The position numbers and the translations under genes were made by a program. Below, piece after piece: positions 755 to 54,509 of a stretch of DNA of 64,000 bases (positions are counted from its first letter, which is position 1; each line of letters begins with the position of its first letter). The notes beneath the pieces are model-generated. The model was not told where the DNA came from and made no database searches. It was given only the letters and a program-made list of their open reading frames with translations. This stretch comes from Gracilinanus agilis (lineage: Eukaryota). The DNA is taken from NCBI RefSeq assembly GCF_016433145.1, contig NC_058133.1, positions 371,824,761 to 371,888,760 of the forward strand, given 5' to 3'.

Positions 755-951
755 CTTTTTTTTTCTTTTTAAACCCTTATCTTCTGTTGTAATATTAGTT
801 CTAAGACAGAAGGGTTACAAGAACTAGTCAGTGGGGGTTAAGTGACTTGCCCAGGATCACAGAACTAGGAAGTATTTGAGACCAGATTTAAATCTAGAAC
901 CTCCTGTCTCTGAGCCTGGCTGTCTATCCACTAAGCCATCTAACTGCCCCC
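755..951 (-). mobile_element. SINE1_Mdo-type tRNA/CORE SINE
   Basis: Reverse complement of GGGGCAG..TGG head, CORE gggttaagtgacttgcccagg and aagggtttaaaa tail. Confidence 0.8.
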
Positions 952-1139
952 TCCCCTCTTCTTTCTTAATGTATTCCCAAACTCCTTTGCTTTCTCCTTT
1001 TAAGATAAACAAAATATAACAGAAACCAATCCCAGGCCTTTTTTTGATTCTTTCTATGCCCCCTGCTGCTGTTATGGTTCTCAGAGAACTCTTGCAACAT
1101 CCTTTTCCCTACCCCTCACTCTCATTTCCCCCTTATAAA

Positions 1140-1910
1140 GTCTTTTTTGATTGCTCACTTGTATTTATCTTTTTATGTTTCTCTTAACTTCTGTGCTTAC
1201 ATTTTAAGTTTCTGGGAGACATCTCACTGTGGCTTGGGCTAGAGAGGTAGTCTTTTCATCAAGAATGTTGGGAAGCTTTCTGTTTCATTCTATTTCATTG
1301 TAAGGTTATATTGAATTGCTAGATGAATTATTCTTGCTTATAGGCCTTTGTCTTGTTTTTTTGGGGGCATTGTATCCCATACTCTCTGCTCCTTTATGGT
1401 CGAAGCTGCTAACTTGGATGTGATCCCCGATTATGGTTTCTTAGGACTTAAACTCTTCATGATTGCTTACAGTACTTTCTTTTGCTGAGAAACTCTGGAT
1501 TTGGGCTATGACATTCTTAGTTTTCTTTTTGAGGTTCCTTCCTAGATGATCAATAGAGTCTTTCTTTTTTTTACTTTGTCCTAGTGTTCCAAGAGTCTAA
1601 TATGCAATTTTCTTTTGTGATTTCTTGAAATATATCCAGTCTCTTTTTTTCCTGGGTCATTTCTTTTAAAAGGTAACTCAATGATTCTTAAAGTTTCTCT
1701 ATATGATCTGTTTTCTAGATCAGTTATTTATATTATACTTTACATTTTCTTCAACCTTTTGACTTTGCTTTAATATTTCTTACTGCCTCATGTGGTCATT
1801 AACTTTTATTTGGTTCACTATAATTTTTAGGAATCTGTTATCTGGGTAAGATTTTCTATCTCTTGTTCCAATCTGTTAATTTTCATTCCAAAACTCTTTA
1901 TCTCTTTCTA
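1140..1910 (-). mobile_element. Decayed L1 fragment (ORF1 region)
   Basis: T-rich on plus strand, resembles marsupial L1 ORF1 antisense; no intact ORF. Confidence 0.55.
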
Positions 1911-37821: not shown

Positions 37822-39823
37822 TTTTGCTCATTTCTCTTTCTAAATTTGCAGCTTGCAACATTTTCTGGTTACTAAGGTCTAAGGCAACAGTCAGCAACCA
37901 TAAATGCCTGGGGAAGGAGGAGGATGGAGGCGGAAGGCGCTGGAATATGGGGCAGGGGCTGAAGGGCCCCCTGGGGCACATCCTGGGGCTCTGCCCAGAC
38001 TGGCCGGTCGGAAGGTGGAGCCAGATATGGCTCGAGAGGCATACTTGCTGATCCCTGGTCTAAGGGATTACTACTCTTATTTTAAGCTAAATTCTAACTA
38101 ATCTCTTATCTCTAAGATTACAAAATAAGAAAAAAGGGTTGCTATCTCCTAAACTATGCTAAGACTAGACTAAGCTAAACTAGGATGGGTTATGGTAAAG
38201 GCATAGGAAAGGAATGGGGATTTAAGTTTGCAAAAAAAAGTTTTGAACAGAAAGGAAAAACAAATTAAATGTAAACATTCACAAACATTCTTAAAAGCTA
38301 ACATTTGCTAACTAGAACAAAGTAATGAATTCTATCTATGTATCTATCTAATTTTATGAACTAACAAGAAAATATTAACTAAGAAAAAATTTTGCAATCT
38401 AAGCTCCTAAATTCTAGTTCACTTTCTAAAGTTAGTATATGAATACATTAGTACACTTATGCCTATGTTAAAAATGTTTAGTAAGAATAAGTAAGACTAT
38501 AATTATTTGTAAGTCTATTGGTCAAACCACAGACTTATGCTATGTACAATATTTACAAAGAAAGTTTGAAAAAATCTGTCCCTATTCTAACTTATCAAAC
38601 TAACTAAACTGTCCCTGTGTGTTACTAAAACTTATTGTTAAGGGTTAGTAAGCAAAATTTACATAATTACATGAAGTGTCAGGTGATTTGAATAGAAGGT
38701 GTCTGAACCAAGGTAAGAGAAAATTCTGTGCTAAGGCAGACATGCTCTTCTCTCTTAAGTGTAAGTTTAGTGTTTCACATGTAGATGTGAAGTCAGGAAA
38801 ATGTTTTAGGTGTTGTCTAGTGTGACTTATCCGTGTAATGAGGTGTTACATACTTACTCCACCGAAATTCTTTTGCAAAGTGCATGTACTCCTTGGATGG
38901 AATCTAATGTTGTATGCAGTGAGAATTCTGTTTGGTGTAAGTTATCTTCTTCAAATACATGTGTCCAACGCTGATCCGATGCTCCTCTTCACAGTGTGGA
39001 TGAACTTCTTACAATTGGTGTATTTGGTCACAGATGTCTTGTAGTTCTCAGGTTTGCTGTCCTCGTGAAGATCTGTGAAGTCAGCAACGCCTCACTTATG
39101 TCATTTGATGTTATCCTGAGCTTCTCAGCTTGCACTGGAATTGCTGTTTTGGTGTTGACTTGTGTCATTTGATTCACCTGCGCTTGTCATCTTGCACTGG
39201 AACTGATGTTCTAGTGTGTTGACTTGTGTCAGGAACAAAGTTCAAATGTCTATCAAATGTGAATAATCTTTCTTTTTTCTTTGTGGTTTAATAAAAATGA
39301 TTATAGGTAACAAAAGAAATCGTGATTAAGTCTTTGTGCTTTTCATTTATTTGTCGATATCAGTTTCTAGATGTGGGATTGATTGTAAATCAAATGTTGT
39401 GTCTTCTTCTTTCGTTGATTCTTTTCTATTGTCATAATTGTTTACAGATGATTCTTCTAAGTGATTGGGATTGGGATAATCATTTGGGTATAAAATCTGG
39501 TATAATATCTGATTGTTTATTGATTCTTGGTCTAATTCTGGTTCTGATTCATGCTACGATTGTTGTTCTGATTGCTGCTCTGGTTCTATGGTCTCATGTA
39601 TAGGCTGTGGACTTTCTGAGGACTTATTTGAATGATTGGTTGGTGCTAGTTGATCTTTGTGCTGTATAGTAACTGGGTCTTGTGGTTGTTGTTGGGACAT
39701 GTCTTTTGCTGGCTTGACATGGGTGACATGGAACCAAGGATCCTTTCCTTTAATTTTGACTGCACTAGGAGTAGTTAAAATTATTTGAAATGGTCCAAGC
39801 CACTTGGGTTCTAACACACTACA
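37822..39823 (-). mobile_element. ERV-A internal 3' part: integrase C-terminus plus env-less 3' region
   Basis: LEPKWLGPFQIILTTPSAVKIKGKDPWFHVTHVKPA is the class I integrase C-terminal GPY/F motif; preceded by only a 7-nt TGTAGTG 5' LTR remnant. Confidence 0.8.
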
Positions 39824-39859
39824 CTTGGAACCAATATACAGCATTGTATTGCTAACAAT

Positions 39860-41124
39860 GATTCCCTGGTCCAGACGTTGAAAGATTAGATCAAACTGCT
39901 AGTTAAGGCTAATAGATAAATCCATGAGAGGAAGCAGTTAGATGAACACACTATTCTCCAATTGGAGATAATTTAAACCAACCAAATTGGGCACAGGCAC
40001 AAATTCAAAATCTAGGACCTCTGAGGACAAGGCTACTGAGATGGAGATCACCTTCTCTGTTCTCCCAATCGTGGGTCGAACTATTCTTCAGCTGGAGAGG
40101 TATATATTACACACCAAATCCTATAAAGCTTTCACCCCTAATGATCTCTAAGTCCTCAGATGCCGTTTCCCCAAATTTTACCTCAGTCCATATAAAAGTA
40201 TAAAGGAAATGAAAAGGGCCTTCACCCTTTTTCAACCCAAGTTTTGCAGATGTTGTGTTTTTACTGGGGGAGTTCTTCTCTCCATCTGAAAAGGACAAAT
40301 TCCTCAATGAGACTAAGACCAATCCTAACTTGATTGAATGGCCTACCATGCACCAGGACCTTGAATTGACATCTCATGTCAACATGAGATATTTACTGCA
40401 ATGCCAGACTGATCTCTTGTAGGCTATGTGTCTCCATGCCAAAAGACCAAATTCATGGTCTAAATTTGAAAGATTAAAGTAGGGGGAAGACAAATACCCC
40501 AGCAATTTCCTCGACAAATTAATTGAGTCAGCTGAGATATTCCTAGGCTTGAGAGACATTCAATCACTCGAGACTGCTGATCATATCAGGAAACAGCTGT
40601 GAAGGGTGCACTTCTGCTGATCCAACAATATTTCAGGCAGAGCTGTCCTCAATGAGAAACTCTATCTCTTGAGGATTTGAGACAACATGCCTCATACATC
40701 CATGATTCAAAGGCCAAAGACCTAAAAGCTATTAAGCAATCAGAAACAGATATGGATGCAGTAATTGCAGACCTTAAAAAACAATTAAAGCAGGCTAAAA
40801 AAAGACAAAGAGATTGAGAAGATTAAGAACTTTGTGTTCCAGGCCAGTAGGGGGCATAGTCAGTCTAGACAGCCTAACACCTTTAGGTGTAAAAACAACT
40901 CCAAATGGTGCTTCCTTTGCGGGTCTTTTGGTCATTTGGTATGGACATGCCACTTTAAACAGCAAATAAACTTCGGGAAGGGCAATAACACTAGCTCAGA
41001 CCAAAGAGACCACAATGCTAGGAAGACCTTCTATAATTCTAGATGGTCTAGCAAATCTGGAAAAGTAGAGATTACTAAGCATGGTGATCAGTGCTGTGAT
41101 TACTCATGCAAGAAATATAGTTAG
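39860..41124 (+). pseudogene. ERV-B gag (CA, MHR, NC), 5'-truncated and disrupted
   Basis: WSKFERLK*GEDKYPSNFLDKL resembles the MHR; CFLCGSFGHLVWTC is a CCHC knuckle at ~40909-40950. Confidence 0.85.
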
Positions 41125-42440
41125 TCACCATCCCTAGACCAGATGGTAAGATATTTGAAAGAAGGTGAAATTCCAAAGCACTTATGAAGTGAGGCCATAA
41201 TTTTGACTGACAATGCTGTTAATGAAGTTTCTCACATGGATAGAGGCATGATGCATGTTTCTGATAGACTGGGCAAAGAAGAGCATATGTCTTTTGCAAG
41301 CTGCACAGAAAACAATGGCATTTCTGTTGCAGAAGACCAAGAATGGGTAGATATAATGCAAATGCGACAAGAGATTTTTGAGAAAACAAGTGATGACTAT
41401 AAAAGGGGTCAGCTTACACATTCCACCTCAATAGGATTGGATGTGAAGCAAAAGGACTACACAGGAATTTGCAGTGGCTTGCCTACAAGAAGCATTGCAA
41501 TCCTGTTTGAAGTCATCAAAATCACTAACTCCTTTTTTTATTCCAAGTTAAACCAACTGGATAGCTTGGATAAAGAAGAAAACATTAGGGATTTACAATG
41601 TATTCATAAAGGAATATCATCTATAACCTTAGAGGAGTTGTGTCCCAATGTGCTACACCATTCTCTTGCTTTAGACATAAAGAATTTTGATTCGGTTAGA
41701 GAGATAGCTTCATGGAATCTTGAGAGAGGCTTGGTTTCTGTAGAGCAGGACACTGTGTTACTGAGTGATAGAAGTAACATAGGGGAACCTTTAGCTACAC
41801 TTCTCAATCCCCAGGCTAAGGAATTCATACCTGAAGGCTAGGTGAGAGAGACTCATCATGATCTGACATCTCAAGTAGCTAAAAGAGTTCAGTAATAACA
41901 CTAATGAGAACTGCTCAGTGACTGAGGTTAACAAAAAACCAAGTTCAGTCATACAAACTGCAGGGCTGGACCGTGAACTCCAAACAATCTTTGAGTTAGG
42001 AGAAAATAATGTTGAAGTAGTGGAGGGAGTAGATGATGTCTGTACCCTGAAACCTGACACTTCAAAAGGGGAAACTTCTAGTCTTGGAGACTGTCGAGCT
42101 CAGAACATCAGAGTGGGAGAAAACTAGTGAAAACTCCACCTTTCCAGCCACTTTCAGTCTGAACATTCTGTGAGCTCTGTTGAAGCCAGCTCTGTTTCCA
42201 AGGTTACTCTCAGCCCTGCTCCAGCTCAGAGGAGCTGTCTGCTCTCTAGCTCAACATTCCATTTAGGCTCTGACAGAGGTAGAACTTCCAAAGACACTTC
42301 AGAGGTCTCTGCTCTAACTGAAAATGCTGACACAAGACATGACGGAGTGCTTGTTCAAAACCATATGCAAGACCAGATCCAAACTCAAGGCACACAATCT
42401 ATTGAATCCCAACTATCGCTAATCCCTATTAAATCTAATA
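41125..42440 (+). other. Gag-protease extension of unknown function with PAM2-like motif
   Basis: Frame continues from gag to protease with a few stops and one frameshift (~41882); includes the 212-codon ORF 41203-41841 ending LLNPQAKEFIPEG*. Confidence 0.65.
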
Positions 42441-44204
42441 GCCATAAGGAACCCCTGATAACCATAAATATTGGGGGGGGGTGTCCTATGATACTCTCAT
42501 TGACACTGGGGCTACTTGTTCTGTACTCAGGCACATTCCAGAAGGATGCAAATATCAGGGAAGTTTGAGAATGAGAGGTTCTTCAGGGCTAGCACAACAA
42601 GTCCCAAAATTTAGAGGCAAAATGGTGAAACTAGGCCCTCTCACAATCGATCACACTTTTCTATTGATGCCTTTGTGTCCTTCCAATCTTGTTGGGAGGG
42701 ATCTTTTATGTAAATTAGTGGCTACCATTCAATGCCAACCAGATGGACAGATCTACCTCTATTTACCTAAGAGATCCCTGAAACACCACCCAATTTTATT
42801 TTTAGACCCATGCGAGGAGGAACCAATTTACCATAATGAAAATAGTGAATATCAGGTTCCTCATGACATTCCTGATTATGTTTGGGCTAAAAATTCCAAT
42901 GATGTTGGAAGAATTCTGTCTGCAGAACCAGTAAAGATAGAGGTCAAGGAGGGAATACCATCACTAATTCCTCAATTCAAATTGAGCAAGGAAGCTACCA
43001 AAGGTGTGAGACCCATAATAGTCTTTTAGACTAAGGAAGATATGGCTTCTCACAGTATAACAGCCCTATCATGGCTGTGAAGAAAGCAAAGTTGACTCCT
43101 GATGGGCAGACTCAATGGCGATTGGTACAAGATCTAAGAGCTGTTAATAACCACGTTAAGAAGACACATGCAGTGGTTCCTAGTCCATCACAAATTATAA
43201 CAGCTATACCAACCACAACTGAATGGTTCACTGTCATTGACCTGTGCTCAGCATATTTTTCTGACAGTCAACAGCTGTTTGCCTTCTCTTGGCAAGGCAA
43301 ATCCATCTTGTGGACAAGAATTCCACAGGGATTCATAGATTCAACATCTGTCTTTTGCCAAATCTTGCAGAGAGACCTTGAGTTGATCACCTTCAAAGAC
43401 AGCAAGATGGTGCATTATGTGGATGACATCCTTCTGACATCACCATCTGCTTCCATTTGTCAAAGGGACACTGTGCATTTACTCAAAGAATAGGCAAATG
43501 GAGTCATAAGCTGTTCAGACTGAAACTCCAGTGGGTAAAGAGACGTGGAGTATTTAGGATTCATTTTGGAAAAGGGCACTAGGAATATTTCCCAATAAAG
43601 GACACAGGATACACAGAAATTGAGCTTGCCAAAGACCAAGAGGCAGCTCAGGGCAATTATTGGAGTAACGAGCTTCTGCAGAAACTGGATTCCAGGTTAT
43701 GCTCTCATTGCTAAACCTTAATAGAGCTGACCAGGAAGGAAGGAAGTCTCAGAGCAGTTGAAATTAAATAAGGAGCATATCCATGGCATCAAAAAGCTCA
43801 AGGCGCTAACTCTATCTGTGCCAGTCCTAGGCATCCCTAATCATGACAAACTTTTTCTATTCTATGTTCATGAAGATAAAGGGATAGCCTCCAGTGTTCT
43901 CACACAAACATTTGGGAATACCCTCAGACCCATTGCATTTTATAGCTCAAAACTAGACCCAGTCATCTGTGGAATGCCAAATTGTCTGAGAGCCTTCGCT
44001 GCTGTAGTCATCATGGTGAGAAAATCTGCTTCTTTGGTATTAGGGGGTGAGCTGATAGTGTATTCCCCACATCAAGTGGAATCTATACTCAGGAATACTA
44101 CTCTACAAGCTTTCACTTCCCAAAAGTTATCACAATACCAAGCAATCCTGTTGGCTAATGAGAACATCACATTTCACCAATGCAAAAATATAAAACCTGC
44201 AACT
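42440..44204 (+). pseudogene. ERV-B protease, RT and connection domain
   Basis: PLITINIGG / LIDTGATCSVL (protease); WRLVQDLRAVN, FTVIDLCSAYF, PQGF, YVDD (RT); RPIAFYSSKLDPV; several frameshifts and stops. Confidence 0.93.
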
Positions 44205-45103
44205 TGTAATGCAAGGAAGATGTATAGTGATGTAAGGGTGATATAAGGTCAGCCAAGGGACCTTAGGCAGATGTAGAAGTTGGTATGTGAAGTAGGGGTC
44301 CTACAGCTAAGCTGAATGAAGGTCAGATGAACTCTTTCACCAGCAAGGACAAGACCCTTTTCAGATCAGGATTTTCTGCCTCTGCCCCAGGAGTTGGAAC
44401 CAATCAAATGGACAGTTGGTATAGTTTCATGAAGGAGGTTGGGACTTCCTGAAATGTAACTGCTTGATAAAAGCTGGCCAACTAAATTTATTCTGATCTG
44501 ACTGCTGGAGATAATTGCCCCTTGTTAAGGTAAAGCAATGGCTTCAAAATCTTTAAGCTTGAAGTTAAAATGGGTTTATTGGTAATTAAATTGAAATCAG
44601 GTAAATGGGAGTTGGAAAGTGGGTGAAGATAAGCTAAGATTTTGGTTAAACTATTCACTAAATTACTTTAGAAAACACAGATTGATCTTTCTAGGTACAG
44701 TAGTATGAGAGAACCTTGAGGGCAAATCTCAACTCTGATACAATTGGTTGCTGACCCAGATGGTGATGACTTGATAGTAGGATTTCTTGTTTTTAATAAG
44801 GGTTGTTGGGTATGCCAAAGAGCTGTTGAATTTGGCTAGCAATGGTAGTTGTTCCTATAACTGCCTAATAAATCTACCCAAAACCACCCAGACCACCCAG
44901 GGCCCACTTTTCCACCCTTTACTCCCTAACCCTGGAGTTCAGAGCCAGAAGTGAAGTCAGGGGTCTGGGGACCCCTTTTTATACCCTCACTTCAACTGTC
45001 ACCCTGGCAACTGGCCTGGGTCCTCTGCCAGGTTCTATGTTCTAAAGTGGCAACTGCCAGCTTGCACCCTCATGAAATGTGGTTGCAGTTTTTGCATATA
45101 ACA
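44205..45103 (-). mobile_element. Nested solo LTR (899 bp) inside ERV-B pol
   Basis: TG..CA ends; TSD aact/gact; pol frame KPAT|LIPDLP rejoins across it; minus-strand TATAAAAA ~44980 and AATAAA ~44578. Confidence 0.88.
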
Positions 45104-45107
45104 GACT

Positions 45108-46185
45108 CTGATTCCTGATCTGCCTTTAGAAGGTGAAAGTCTACACAACTGTGAAGATGCACTGGACATTGTGCACAAGATGAGGGAAGACTTATATGAT
45201 ACACCCATAGATAATTCCGAAATGACACTCTTCACCGATGGGTCGACTTACATGGCAGATGGACAGAAGTTTACCAGTACAGCAGTAGTGACAGTCACTG
45301 AGACCTTATGGTACTCATCTCTCTTCCATCTATAATGAGTGCTCAAGGGGCAGAGTTACTAGGTTTGCCACGTGCTCTCCAATTAGCAAAAAACTAAAGA
45401 GTAAACATTTTTACTGACTCTAAATATGCTTTTGGAGTAGTGCATCATTCTGGGGAATTCTGGAAAAATTGTGGCTTTATAACATCCAATGGCAAGCAGA
45501 TTGTGTACAGCAATATCATAAATGAGCTATTGCAGACACTCCAATTACCATTCCAAGTTTCTGTAATTCACAGCAGAGGGCATAGTAAGATTCAAGGGCC
45601 AAGAGAATCAGGGAATAGAAAGGCCAATATCACTGCCAAATTCGGGGTGAGGTATGGACCAATTTCAATCCTGAACTTGTCCTTGGTGGATGAAGTTGAT
45701 CTGAGAAATGCCTACTCTCCAAGGGAAGTGAAGGATTGGAAACATCTTGGTGCATACTTAGCTAATGGAGTTTGGCTGGCCACAGATGGTAAACCTCTTT
45801 TACCAAAATCCTTGTATTTTACCTTCTGCAACACTCTATATCAAAAAGGCCATTATAGAACTTTGGGATTGATGGATTCAATATGAAGATACTGGCATGC
45901 AAAATGAATTACTGAATGTGCAATGAGAGTTTGCCAGAAGTGAACAATTTGTATGCAGTACAACCAAGCTATTACCAAAGTACATAGCTTTAGGAGGCAA
46001 ACAACTAGCCTATATCCCTTTTGAGTGCATACAAATTGATTATATAACCATGCCTAGGTGTCAGAGATACAGGTATGCATTAGTAATTGTTTACAGGTTG
46101 ACTAAGTGGCCAGAAGCTTTCCCAGCTAGACATAATACAGCAGCTTTTGTAGTTAAGATCCTGCTGAGGGAACTATTTCCAAGCC
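45108..46185 (+). pseudogene. ERV-B RNase H and integrase N-terminus/core, 3'-truncated
   Basis: LFTDGSTY, FTDSKYAFG, IHSRGH, GNRKA (RNase H); IQIDYITMPRCQRYRYALVIV..TKWPEAFP (integrase), ends at LLRELFP. Confidence 0.9.
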
Positions 46186-54348: not shown

Positions 54349-54509
54349 NNNNNNNNNNNNNNNNNNNNNNNNNNNNNNNNNNNNNNNNNNNNNNNNNNNN
54401 NNNNNNNNNNNNNNNNNNNNNNNNNNNNNNNNNNNNNNNNNNNNNNNNNNNNNNNNNNNNNNNNNNNNNNNNNNNNNNNNNNNNNNNNNNNNNNNNNNNN
54501 NNNNNNNNN
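54349..54509. other. Assembly gap (161 N)
   Basis: Direct reading. Confidence 0.99.

Follow-up and report, generated by a model that had tools for sequence, protein, structure and literature searches.

A PAM2-type motif in the long NC-protease extension of a probable class I endogenous retrovirus

The provirus and its relatives

The window (the whole 64,000-nucleotide stretch of Gracilinanus agilis DNA that was analyzed) holds what is probably the dead copy of a class I retrovirus in a marsupial genome, standing between the gamma and epsilon groups. This placement follows from the opossum ERVs that are its closest relatives in Pol, from a quick RT tree and from SINE-like short repeats in the window that presumably resemble opossum SINEs. 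The class I order gag-PR-RT-RNase H-IN is present (Table 1), and the RT groups with gamma and epsilon viruses. The capsid-like part of gag matched no Pfam family and no matrix region was found upstream of it. Around the knuckle, the stretch 40789-41124 carries a net charge of +14. The N-terminal part of the protease aligns to the Pol N-termini of opossum ERVs, with 1 of 500 shuffles scoring as well for one protein (P0048) and 0 of 500 for another (P0022); for three other Pol N-termini 17, 117 and 126 of 500 shuffles did as well, and the protease piece used as a query matched no homologue.

Table 1. Features of the element, in window coordinates
Feature	Position	Strand	Basis or remark
Integrase C-terminal domain, inverted	39557..39898	-	Pfam MLVIN_C E 7.5e-13; just upstream of gag
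Capsid-like gag part	40098..40542	+	frameshifted, with stops; tblastn to gammaretroviral Gags E 9e-6 to 8e-4
NC zinc knuckle, single CCHC	40909..40950	+	Pfam zf-CCHC_2 E 0.0017; basic region
TAG, candidate native gag stop by position	41122..41124	+	57 codons past knuckle
Extension, first half, 252 codons, acidic (net -17)	41125..41880	+	includes 217-codon open piece 41188-41838
TGA, candidate native gag stop	41185..41187	+	context TGAAGT; 78 codons past knuckle
PAM2-type motif	41797..41832	+	core 41803-41832; full match to ELM LIG_PAM2_1
TAG then G, favored candidate native gag stop	41839..41841	+	two codons past motif core
Frameshift	41879..41893	+	bracketed by flanking stops of two frames
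Extension, second half, Ser/Thr-rich, few hydrophobic residues	41882..42412	+	one double stop 42125/42128
Protease	42413..42750	+	Pfam RVP E 6e-6; DTG at 42502; frameshift near 42475
RT and connection domain	42850..44204	+	Pfam RVT_1, RT_RNaseH; contains stops
Later insertion in pol, ~0.9 kb, LTR-like ends (TG...CA)	44207..45096		Pol alignments break at 44204, restart at 45084-45105
RNase H and integrase core	45084..46181	+	Pfam and Pol alignments; truncated near 46181

The later insertion splits the connection domain from RNase H, and its four-base flank is near-duplicated. The inverted integrase C-terminus is 50-60% identical to the Monodelphis domestica Pol family closest to the element's own pol, and taken with the plus-strand integrase ending near 46181 it points to either an inversion within the element or another, related insertion. 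No LTR pair was found among the repeats of the window, and no tRNA gene in the window; 38400-39553 on the minus strand, the single region scanned for env, matched no env family. Rfam gave a single match, at E 0.33 and below the gathering score. Upstream of the inverted integrase piece, positions 39094-39231 form two tandem copies with a 64-base period that are 82% alike, and 54349-54509 is a run of 161 N.

In Pol, the nearest proteins are ERV products of M. domestica, which are about 50% identical. A quick tree of 28 RT-connection rows, with ten rows dropped (two betaretroviral outgroups, one partial sequence and seven near-duplicates), makes the element sister to the M. domestica Pols (SH-aLRT 98) and places it near lizard and unnamed Pols, apart from the MLV clade and from the WDSV clade alike. 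Membership of the two named genera was considered and neither was retained: the RT groups with opossum and lizard Pols and the WDSV clade is separate, which speaks against an epsilonretrovirus, and for a gammaretrovirus the RT falls outside the MLV clade and the stop is not 16-21 codons past the knuckle. Tasmanian devil ERVs have also been placed between gamma and epsilon, according to the accessible part of PMC11334065.

The extension between NC and protease

A preliminary description of this DNA had placed about 1.3 kb between the NC knuckle and the protease and considered that spacer unusually long, and both statements are borne out. From the knuckle to the protease DTG there are 517 codons here. 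Across 12 class I references the distance is 43-106 codons (ten gamma-type records at 43-60, WDSV at 106 and SSSV at about 96, counted by hand), which makes the spacer 5-12 times as long as theirs. In betaretroviruses the same position is occupied by an extra domain of 193 codons, which we take to be the dUTPase. The WDSV reference record was named by its length and by the position and context of its stop (2546, UAG), and the SSSV record by its stop context (UGAAGA), as given in the accessible part of PMC13517186.

Between 40789 and about 41880 the only stops in the gag frame are those at 41122, 41185 and 41839, and the next frame, from 41879 to about 42475, is interrupted only at 42125/42128. 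The stops had been located correctly apart from the one placed at 41183, which is really at 41185, and the open stretch between stops measures 217 codons rather than the 212 originally given. The frameshift reported near 41882 is real, and a further one near 42475, beyond the span first described, divides the protease N-terminus from its catalytic motif.

The extension is former coding sequence in the gag-pro frame. About 29 stops would be expected in its 448 codons, and it holds 4: the first half has 2 in 252 codons against a shuffle mean of 17.4, the second 2 in 196 against 11.2, and for each half none of 2000 dinucleotide shuffles was as low. A codon-position score trained on pol chooses the claimed frame in four of five sub-segments, including the part past 42128, the fifth being only 20 codons long and uninformative. 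In base composition and CpG depletion the segment is like pol, and its frame runs on from NC and leads into the protease N-terminus. These observations speak of past coding and not of selection on the present copy, since pol is also broken (7 stops in 390 RT codons), bears an insertion and is truncated in integrase; the earlier caution against taking the open stretch as a sign of selection points the same way.

Searches with the 217-aa piece gave no match among longer proteins, viral contigs or the Atlas. Using phmmer against 1.84 billion representatives, one match was returned, a spurious tandem-repeat protein (P0001), and the PDB yielded only two weak matches (E 0.2 and 0.89). No second locus or protein carrying the segment appeared in the protein and viral-contig searches, no related loci in viral or metagenome contigs, and no related sequence elsewhere in the window. 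For the second half, searched against Pfam, the PDB and 14 reference retrovirus loci, there was no meaningful match. A single-sequence structure model of the 217-aa piece had a pLDDT of 33 throughout and no confident fold, and the hydrophobic fraction drops to 23-26% around and after the motif described next.

The PAM2-type motif and the gag stop

The sequence TLLNPQAKEFIP, encoded at 41797-41832, fits the complete ELM LIG_PAM2_1 pattern as printed in the supplement of PMC10132805. Its sole match in 177,635 PDB sequences is the PAIP2 peptide (1JGN chain B), with which it shares 8 of 12 residues (E 0.77). The pattern put forward in the preliminary description occurs once in the 127,996 six-frame positions of the window and in none of 56 fetched retroviral proteins, and the Phe/Tyr branch of the ELM pattern matches three times in the window's six frames. 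Over 448 codons, the expected chance count is 5.5e-6 for the former and 9e-4 for the ELM pattern. The proposed Pfam scan (PAM2, PF07145, cutoff 20) gave scores on both sides of the cutoff, with 22 bits in a 33-aa piece but 18.7 in the 252 aa and 18 in the 217-aa piece (E 0.0022). A HELZ-like helicase, HELZ being a genuine PAM2 protein, reaches only 13.8 bits on the same model; a score of 18 is therefore not disqualifying. Judged from its sequence, the motif appears to be a textbook PAM2, and an origin by chance is unlikely. According to the accessible part of bioRxiv 10.64898/2026.01.10.698208, PAIP2 and eRF3a bind PABP most tightly among the 13 partners tested. The second AKEF that repair of the frameshift was expected to restore is there only in fragments: AK precedes the break in one frame and EF follows it in the next, but the L-N and P positions (three consensus positions) are absent, leaving a motif that is at best degenerate.

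Which stop ended the ancestral Gag bears directly on how such a motif might have worked. Gag and pro-pol are consistent with a single frame, but two frameshifts now interrupt it and there are four stop sites to choose from. Measured from the knuckle, 41122 and 41185 resemble the WDSV and SSSV layout (66 and about 61 codons from knuckle to stop) better than 41839 does. The hexanucleotide TGAAGT at 41185 is also reported for a read-through site of a frog ERV (PMC13517186, accessible part), and a switch from basic to acidic charge falls near 41100-41150, close to both upstream stops. There is nonetheless a roughly even chance that TAG 41839 is the native gag stop, and the lean toward it arises because the motif core ends two codons before this TAG, an arrangement with a parallel in WDSV. 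Folding of the 100 nt after the four candidate stops gave z of 0.4-0.7 in a test without power, as the controls MLV, WDSV and SSSV were also null (-0.6 to 1.5).

In the WDSV Gag (2501-2548), a Trp-type stretch, L-x3-A-x-E-W-x-P, ends five codons before UAG 2546. It has one mismatch to the ELM pattern and no match in Pfam or the PDB. A loose pattern, written after seeing WDSV, has a chance expectation of 2.5e-3 over the whole Gag and 9e-5 in its last 30 residues. This pattern occurs in 1 of 12 reference Gags and is absent from the other 11, including that of the salmon virus SSSV; among the matches listed it occurs in 1 of 64 knuckle-bearing frames, many of which repeat the same records. A search for further epsilon-type Gags recovered only WDSV. 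Terms for WDSV are absent from the 12 supplements searched of the 14 that accompany PMC10132805, and its peptide was therefore probably unscreened there. The accessible parts of the WDSV review PMC3185748 and of PMC13517186 make no mention of the stretch.

It would be a long shot, on this evidence, that class I retroviruses from fish to marsupials repeatedly, or from early on, ended their Gag with a PABP-docking motif next to the codon that is read through. If true, such a repeated motif would reveal an unrecognized host-factor link controlling the translation and stability of unspliced retroviral RNA. The parallel with WDSV also makes a Gag-borne PAM2 testable with two short natural peptides, leaving the dead provirus untouched.

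A possible PABPC1-docking Gag tail, its rivals and its precedents

The reading favored here, tentatively, is that an extinct class I virus carried a PAM2 near the end of an extended Gag, where it would have docked PABPC1 onto complexes of Gag and viral RNA. Gag would have ended at TAG 41839, with 41125-41838 forming an accessory domain of roughly 240 residues after NC and 41842-42412 a leader present on the read-through product only. The peptide would bind the MLLE domain of PABPC1, as the PAIP2 and henipavirus or coronavirus peptides do. A peptide two codons from the stop lies within the ribosome exit tunnel at termination; the motif would for this reason act from finished Gag rather than from the nascent chain. 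With NC gripping the unspliced RNA and the motif holding PABPC1, translation and stability would be favored for an RNA whose gag stop lies kilobases from the poly(A) tail. Simple retroviruses must keep precisely such an RNA stable and translated. Termination far from PABP is prone to NMD (PMC9661723, accessible part), and the viral PAM2 precedents with measured binding in the accessible part of PMC10132805 are RNP proteins (HCoV-229E N, Berne N and Hendra P/V/W). A PAM2 seated on MLLE would, however, exclude eRF3 from the bound PABPC1, and protection from NMD would not be automatic. The reading of the motif as a docking Gag tail rests on one degraded copy.

Among the alternatives, the extension may have been viral coding sequence with another role (spacer, late domain or assembly), its PAM2 match being due to chance or never used. 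This is a doubtful contender: there is a single copy, the Pfam score is below the cutoff in the full piece, and the looser ELM-like pattern has three matches in the window's six frames. The calculated chance of 6e-6 to 9e-4 per segment is nevertheless low. A strict DNA pattern, written from the window motif and hence post hoc, turned up no more than 8 loci among 2.9 million viral contigs, of which 7 lie in open frames of what are apparently large eukaryotic DNA viruses, and in the metagenomes (117 of about 170 loci listed, mostly eukaryotic genes by inspection) the annotated matches included PAM2 carriers of known type. The seven viral loci (L001 and L003-L008) have PAM2 in open frames, and one of them (L005) joins a kinesin motor domain to PAM2. 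Four metagenome loci (L061:2-1051, L053, L081 and L084) show PAM2-like motifs in acidic or short, element-looking frames, with tandem copies at 30-32 Pfam bits in L053 and L084.

Alternatively, the native stop could have been 41122 or 41185 and the extension with its one or two PAM2 motifs a leader found on Gag-Pol alone, competing with eRF3 for PABPC1 and feeding back on termination. This unlikely arrangement is close to the original proposal that eRF3 competition tuned read-through, and it draws on the stop distances, 57 and 78 codons against 66 in WDSV and about 61 in SSSV, on the TGAAGT hexanucleotide and on the nearby change of charge. The degenerate second motif would suit a tandem pair broken by a stop of decay, betaretroviruses have an extra domain in the same position, and the MLV RT, which binds eRF1 (PMC9661723, accessible part), is a precedent for a retroviral protein engaging the termination machinery. 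Against it, PABPC1 is predicted to have minimal influence on viral read-through, with little effect anticipated at sites that have a long coding sequence downstream (PMC13517186, accessible part), Gag-Pol would be scarce relative to PABPC1, and the position of the motif beside a stop both here and in WDSV would be a coincidence. Read-through tuning is ranked below tethering because of this minimal expected effect and because the motif would be buried in the exit tunnel at termination if 41839 were native; were the native stop upstream, tuning would become the better reading, paralleling MLV RT and eRF1. Of the original interpretation, the old gag-pro coding, the textbook PAM2 and the long spacer stand, and the tuning of read-through by competition with eRF3 has become less likely.

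Host proteins typically carry PAM2 motifs in tandem, but it is improbable that the segment is a fragment of a host PAM2-protein mRNA captured in frame, or a later insertion, with the motif as a passenger: the possible tandem motifs, the want of a viral homologue and a rearranged provirus with at least one later insertion would fit, whereas the composition and codon pattern are like those of pol, the frame is continuous with NC and the protease N-terminus, the window holds no related sequence, and the lone spurious phmmer match to the 217-aa first-half piece leaves capture of a conserved host gene unsupported.

Returning to the docking Gag tail, viral PAM2 mimicry is already known, and raw sequence data include an LTR retrotransposon with a PAM2. 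If true, such mimicry would, as far as the searches reach, have its first retroviral example in a PAM2 borne by Gag, which would also mark a new position for an accessory domain in class I viruses. The literature searched, in which few subscription papers were covered, yielded no retroviral PAM2 or comparable NC-protease extension, and neither appears in the accessible parts of the 2026 read-through review PMC13517186 or the WDSV review PMC3185748. According to the former, likewise in its accessible part, epsilonretroviral read-through has never been experimentally verified.

Several known systems share one aspect or another with this element. The M. domestica class I ERV Pol family (UniRef K7E2C3, A0A5F8GG34 and K7E386) resembles its pol and has a similar protease N-terminus, but is younger, with long open Pol proteins. 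No PAM2 was found in the fetched proteins of this family; their predicted forms begin at most 58 residues before the DTG and so hint at no long leader, though calling from Met starts would miss a Met-poor one. The preliminary description had allowed that PAM2-like motifs may occur in other retroelements, and a metagenomic LTR retrotransposon (L065), presumably of BEL/Pao type, does carry one in a polyprotein region (21.5 bits, above the Pfam cutoff). That PAM2 follows an integrase core and DUF5641 near the C terminus (943-1898, minus strand) and does not lie between NC and protease as in the window; no description of a PAM2 retrotransposon of this type was found in the literature searched. In the case of MLV, it is a folded Pol domain that engages eRF1, unlike a short motif directed at PABPC1.

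The viral mimics in the accessible part of PMC10132805 (Hendra and Nipah P/V/W, HCoV-229E N and Berne N) have the same ELM motif in an RNA-associated viral protein, and MLLE binding was measured there, but retroviruses account for 0 of 7 PABP rows. The putative PAM2 of the window is closer to PAIP2, and its gene is dead. With PAIP2 there is no similarity outside the motif, which in the window is embedded in a retroviral polyprotein. WDSV Gag resembles the window in its single knuckle, its in-frame gag-pro junction and a PAM2-like stretch before the UAG, and differs from it in a knuckle-to-DTG distance of 106 rather than 517 codons, a weaker, Trp-type motif, a Pol that is 35% identical and a place in a separate clade.
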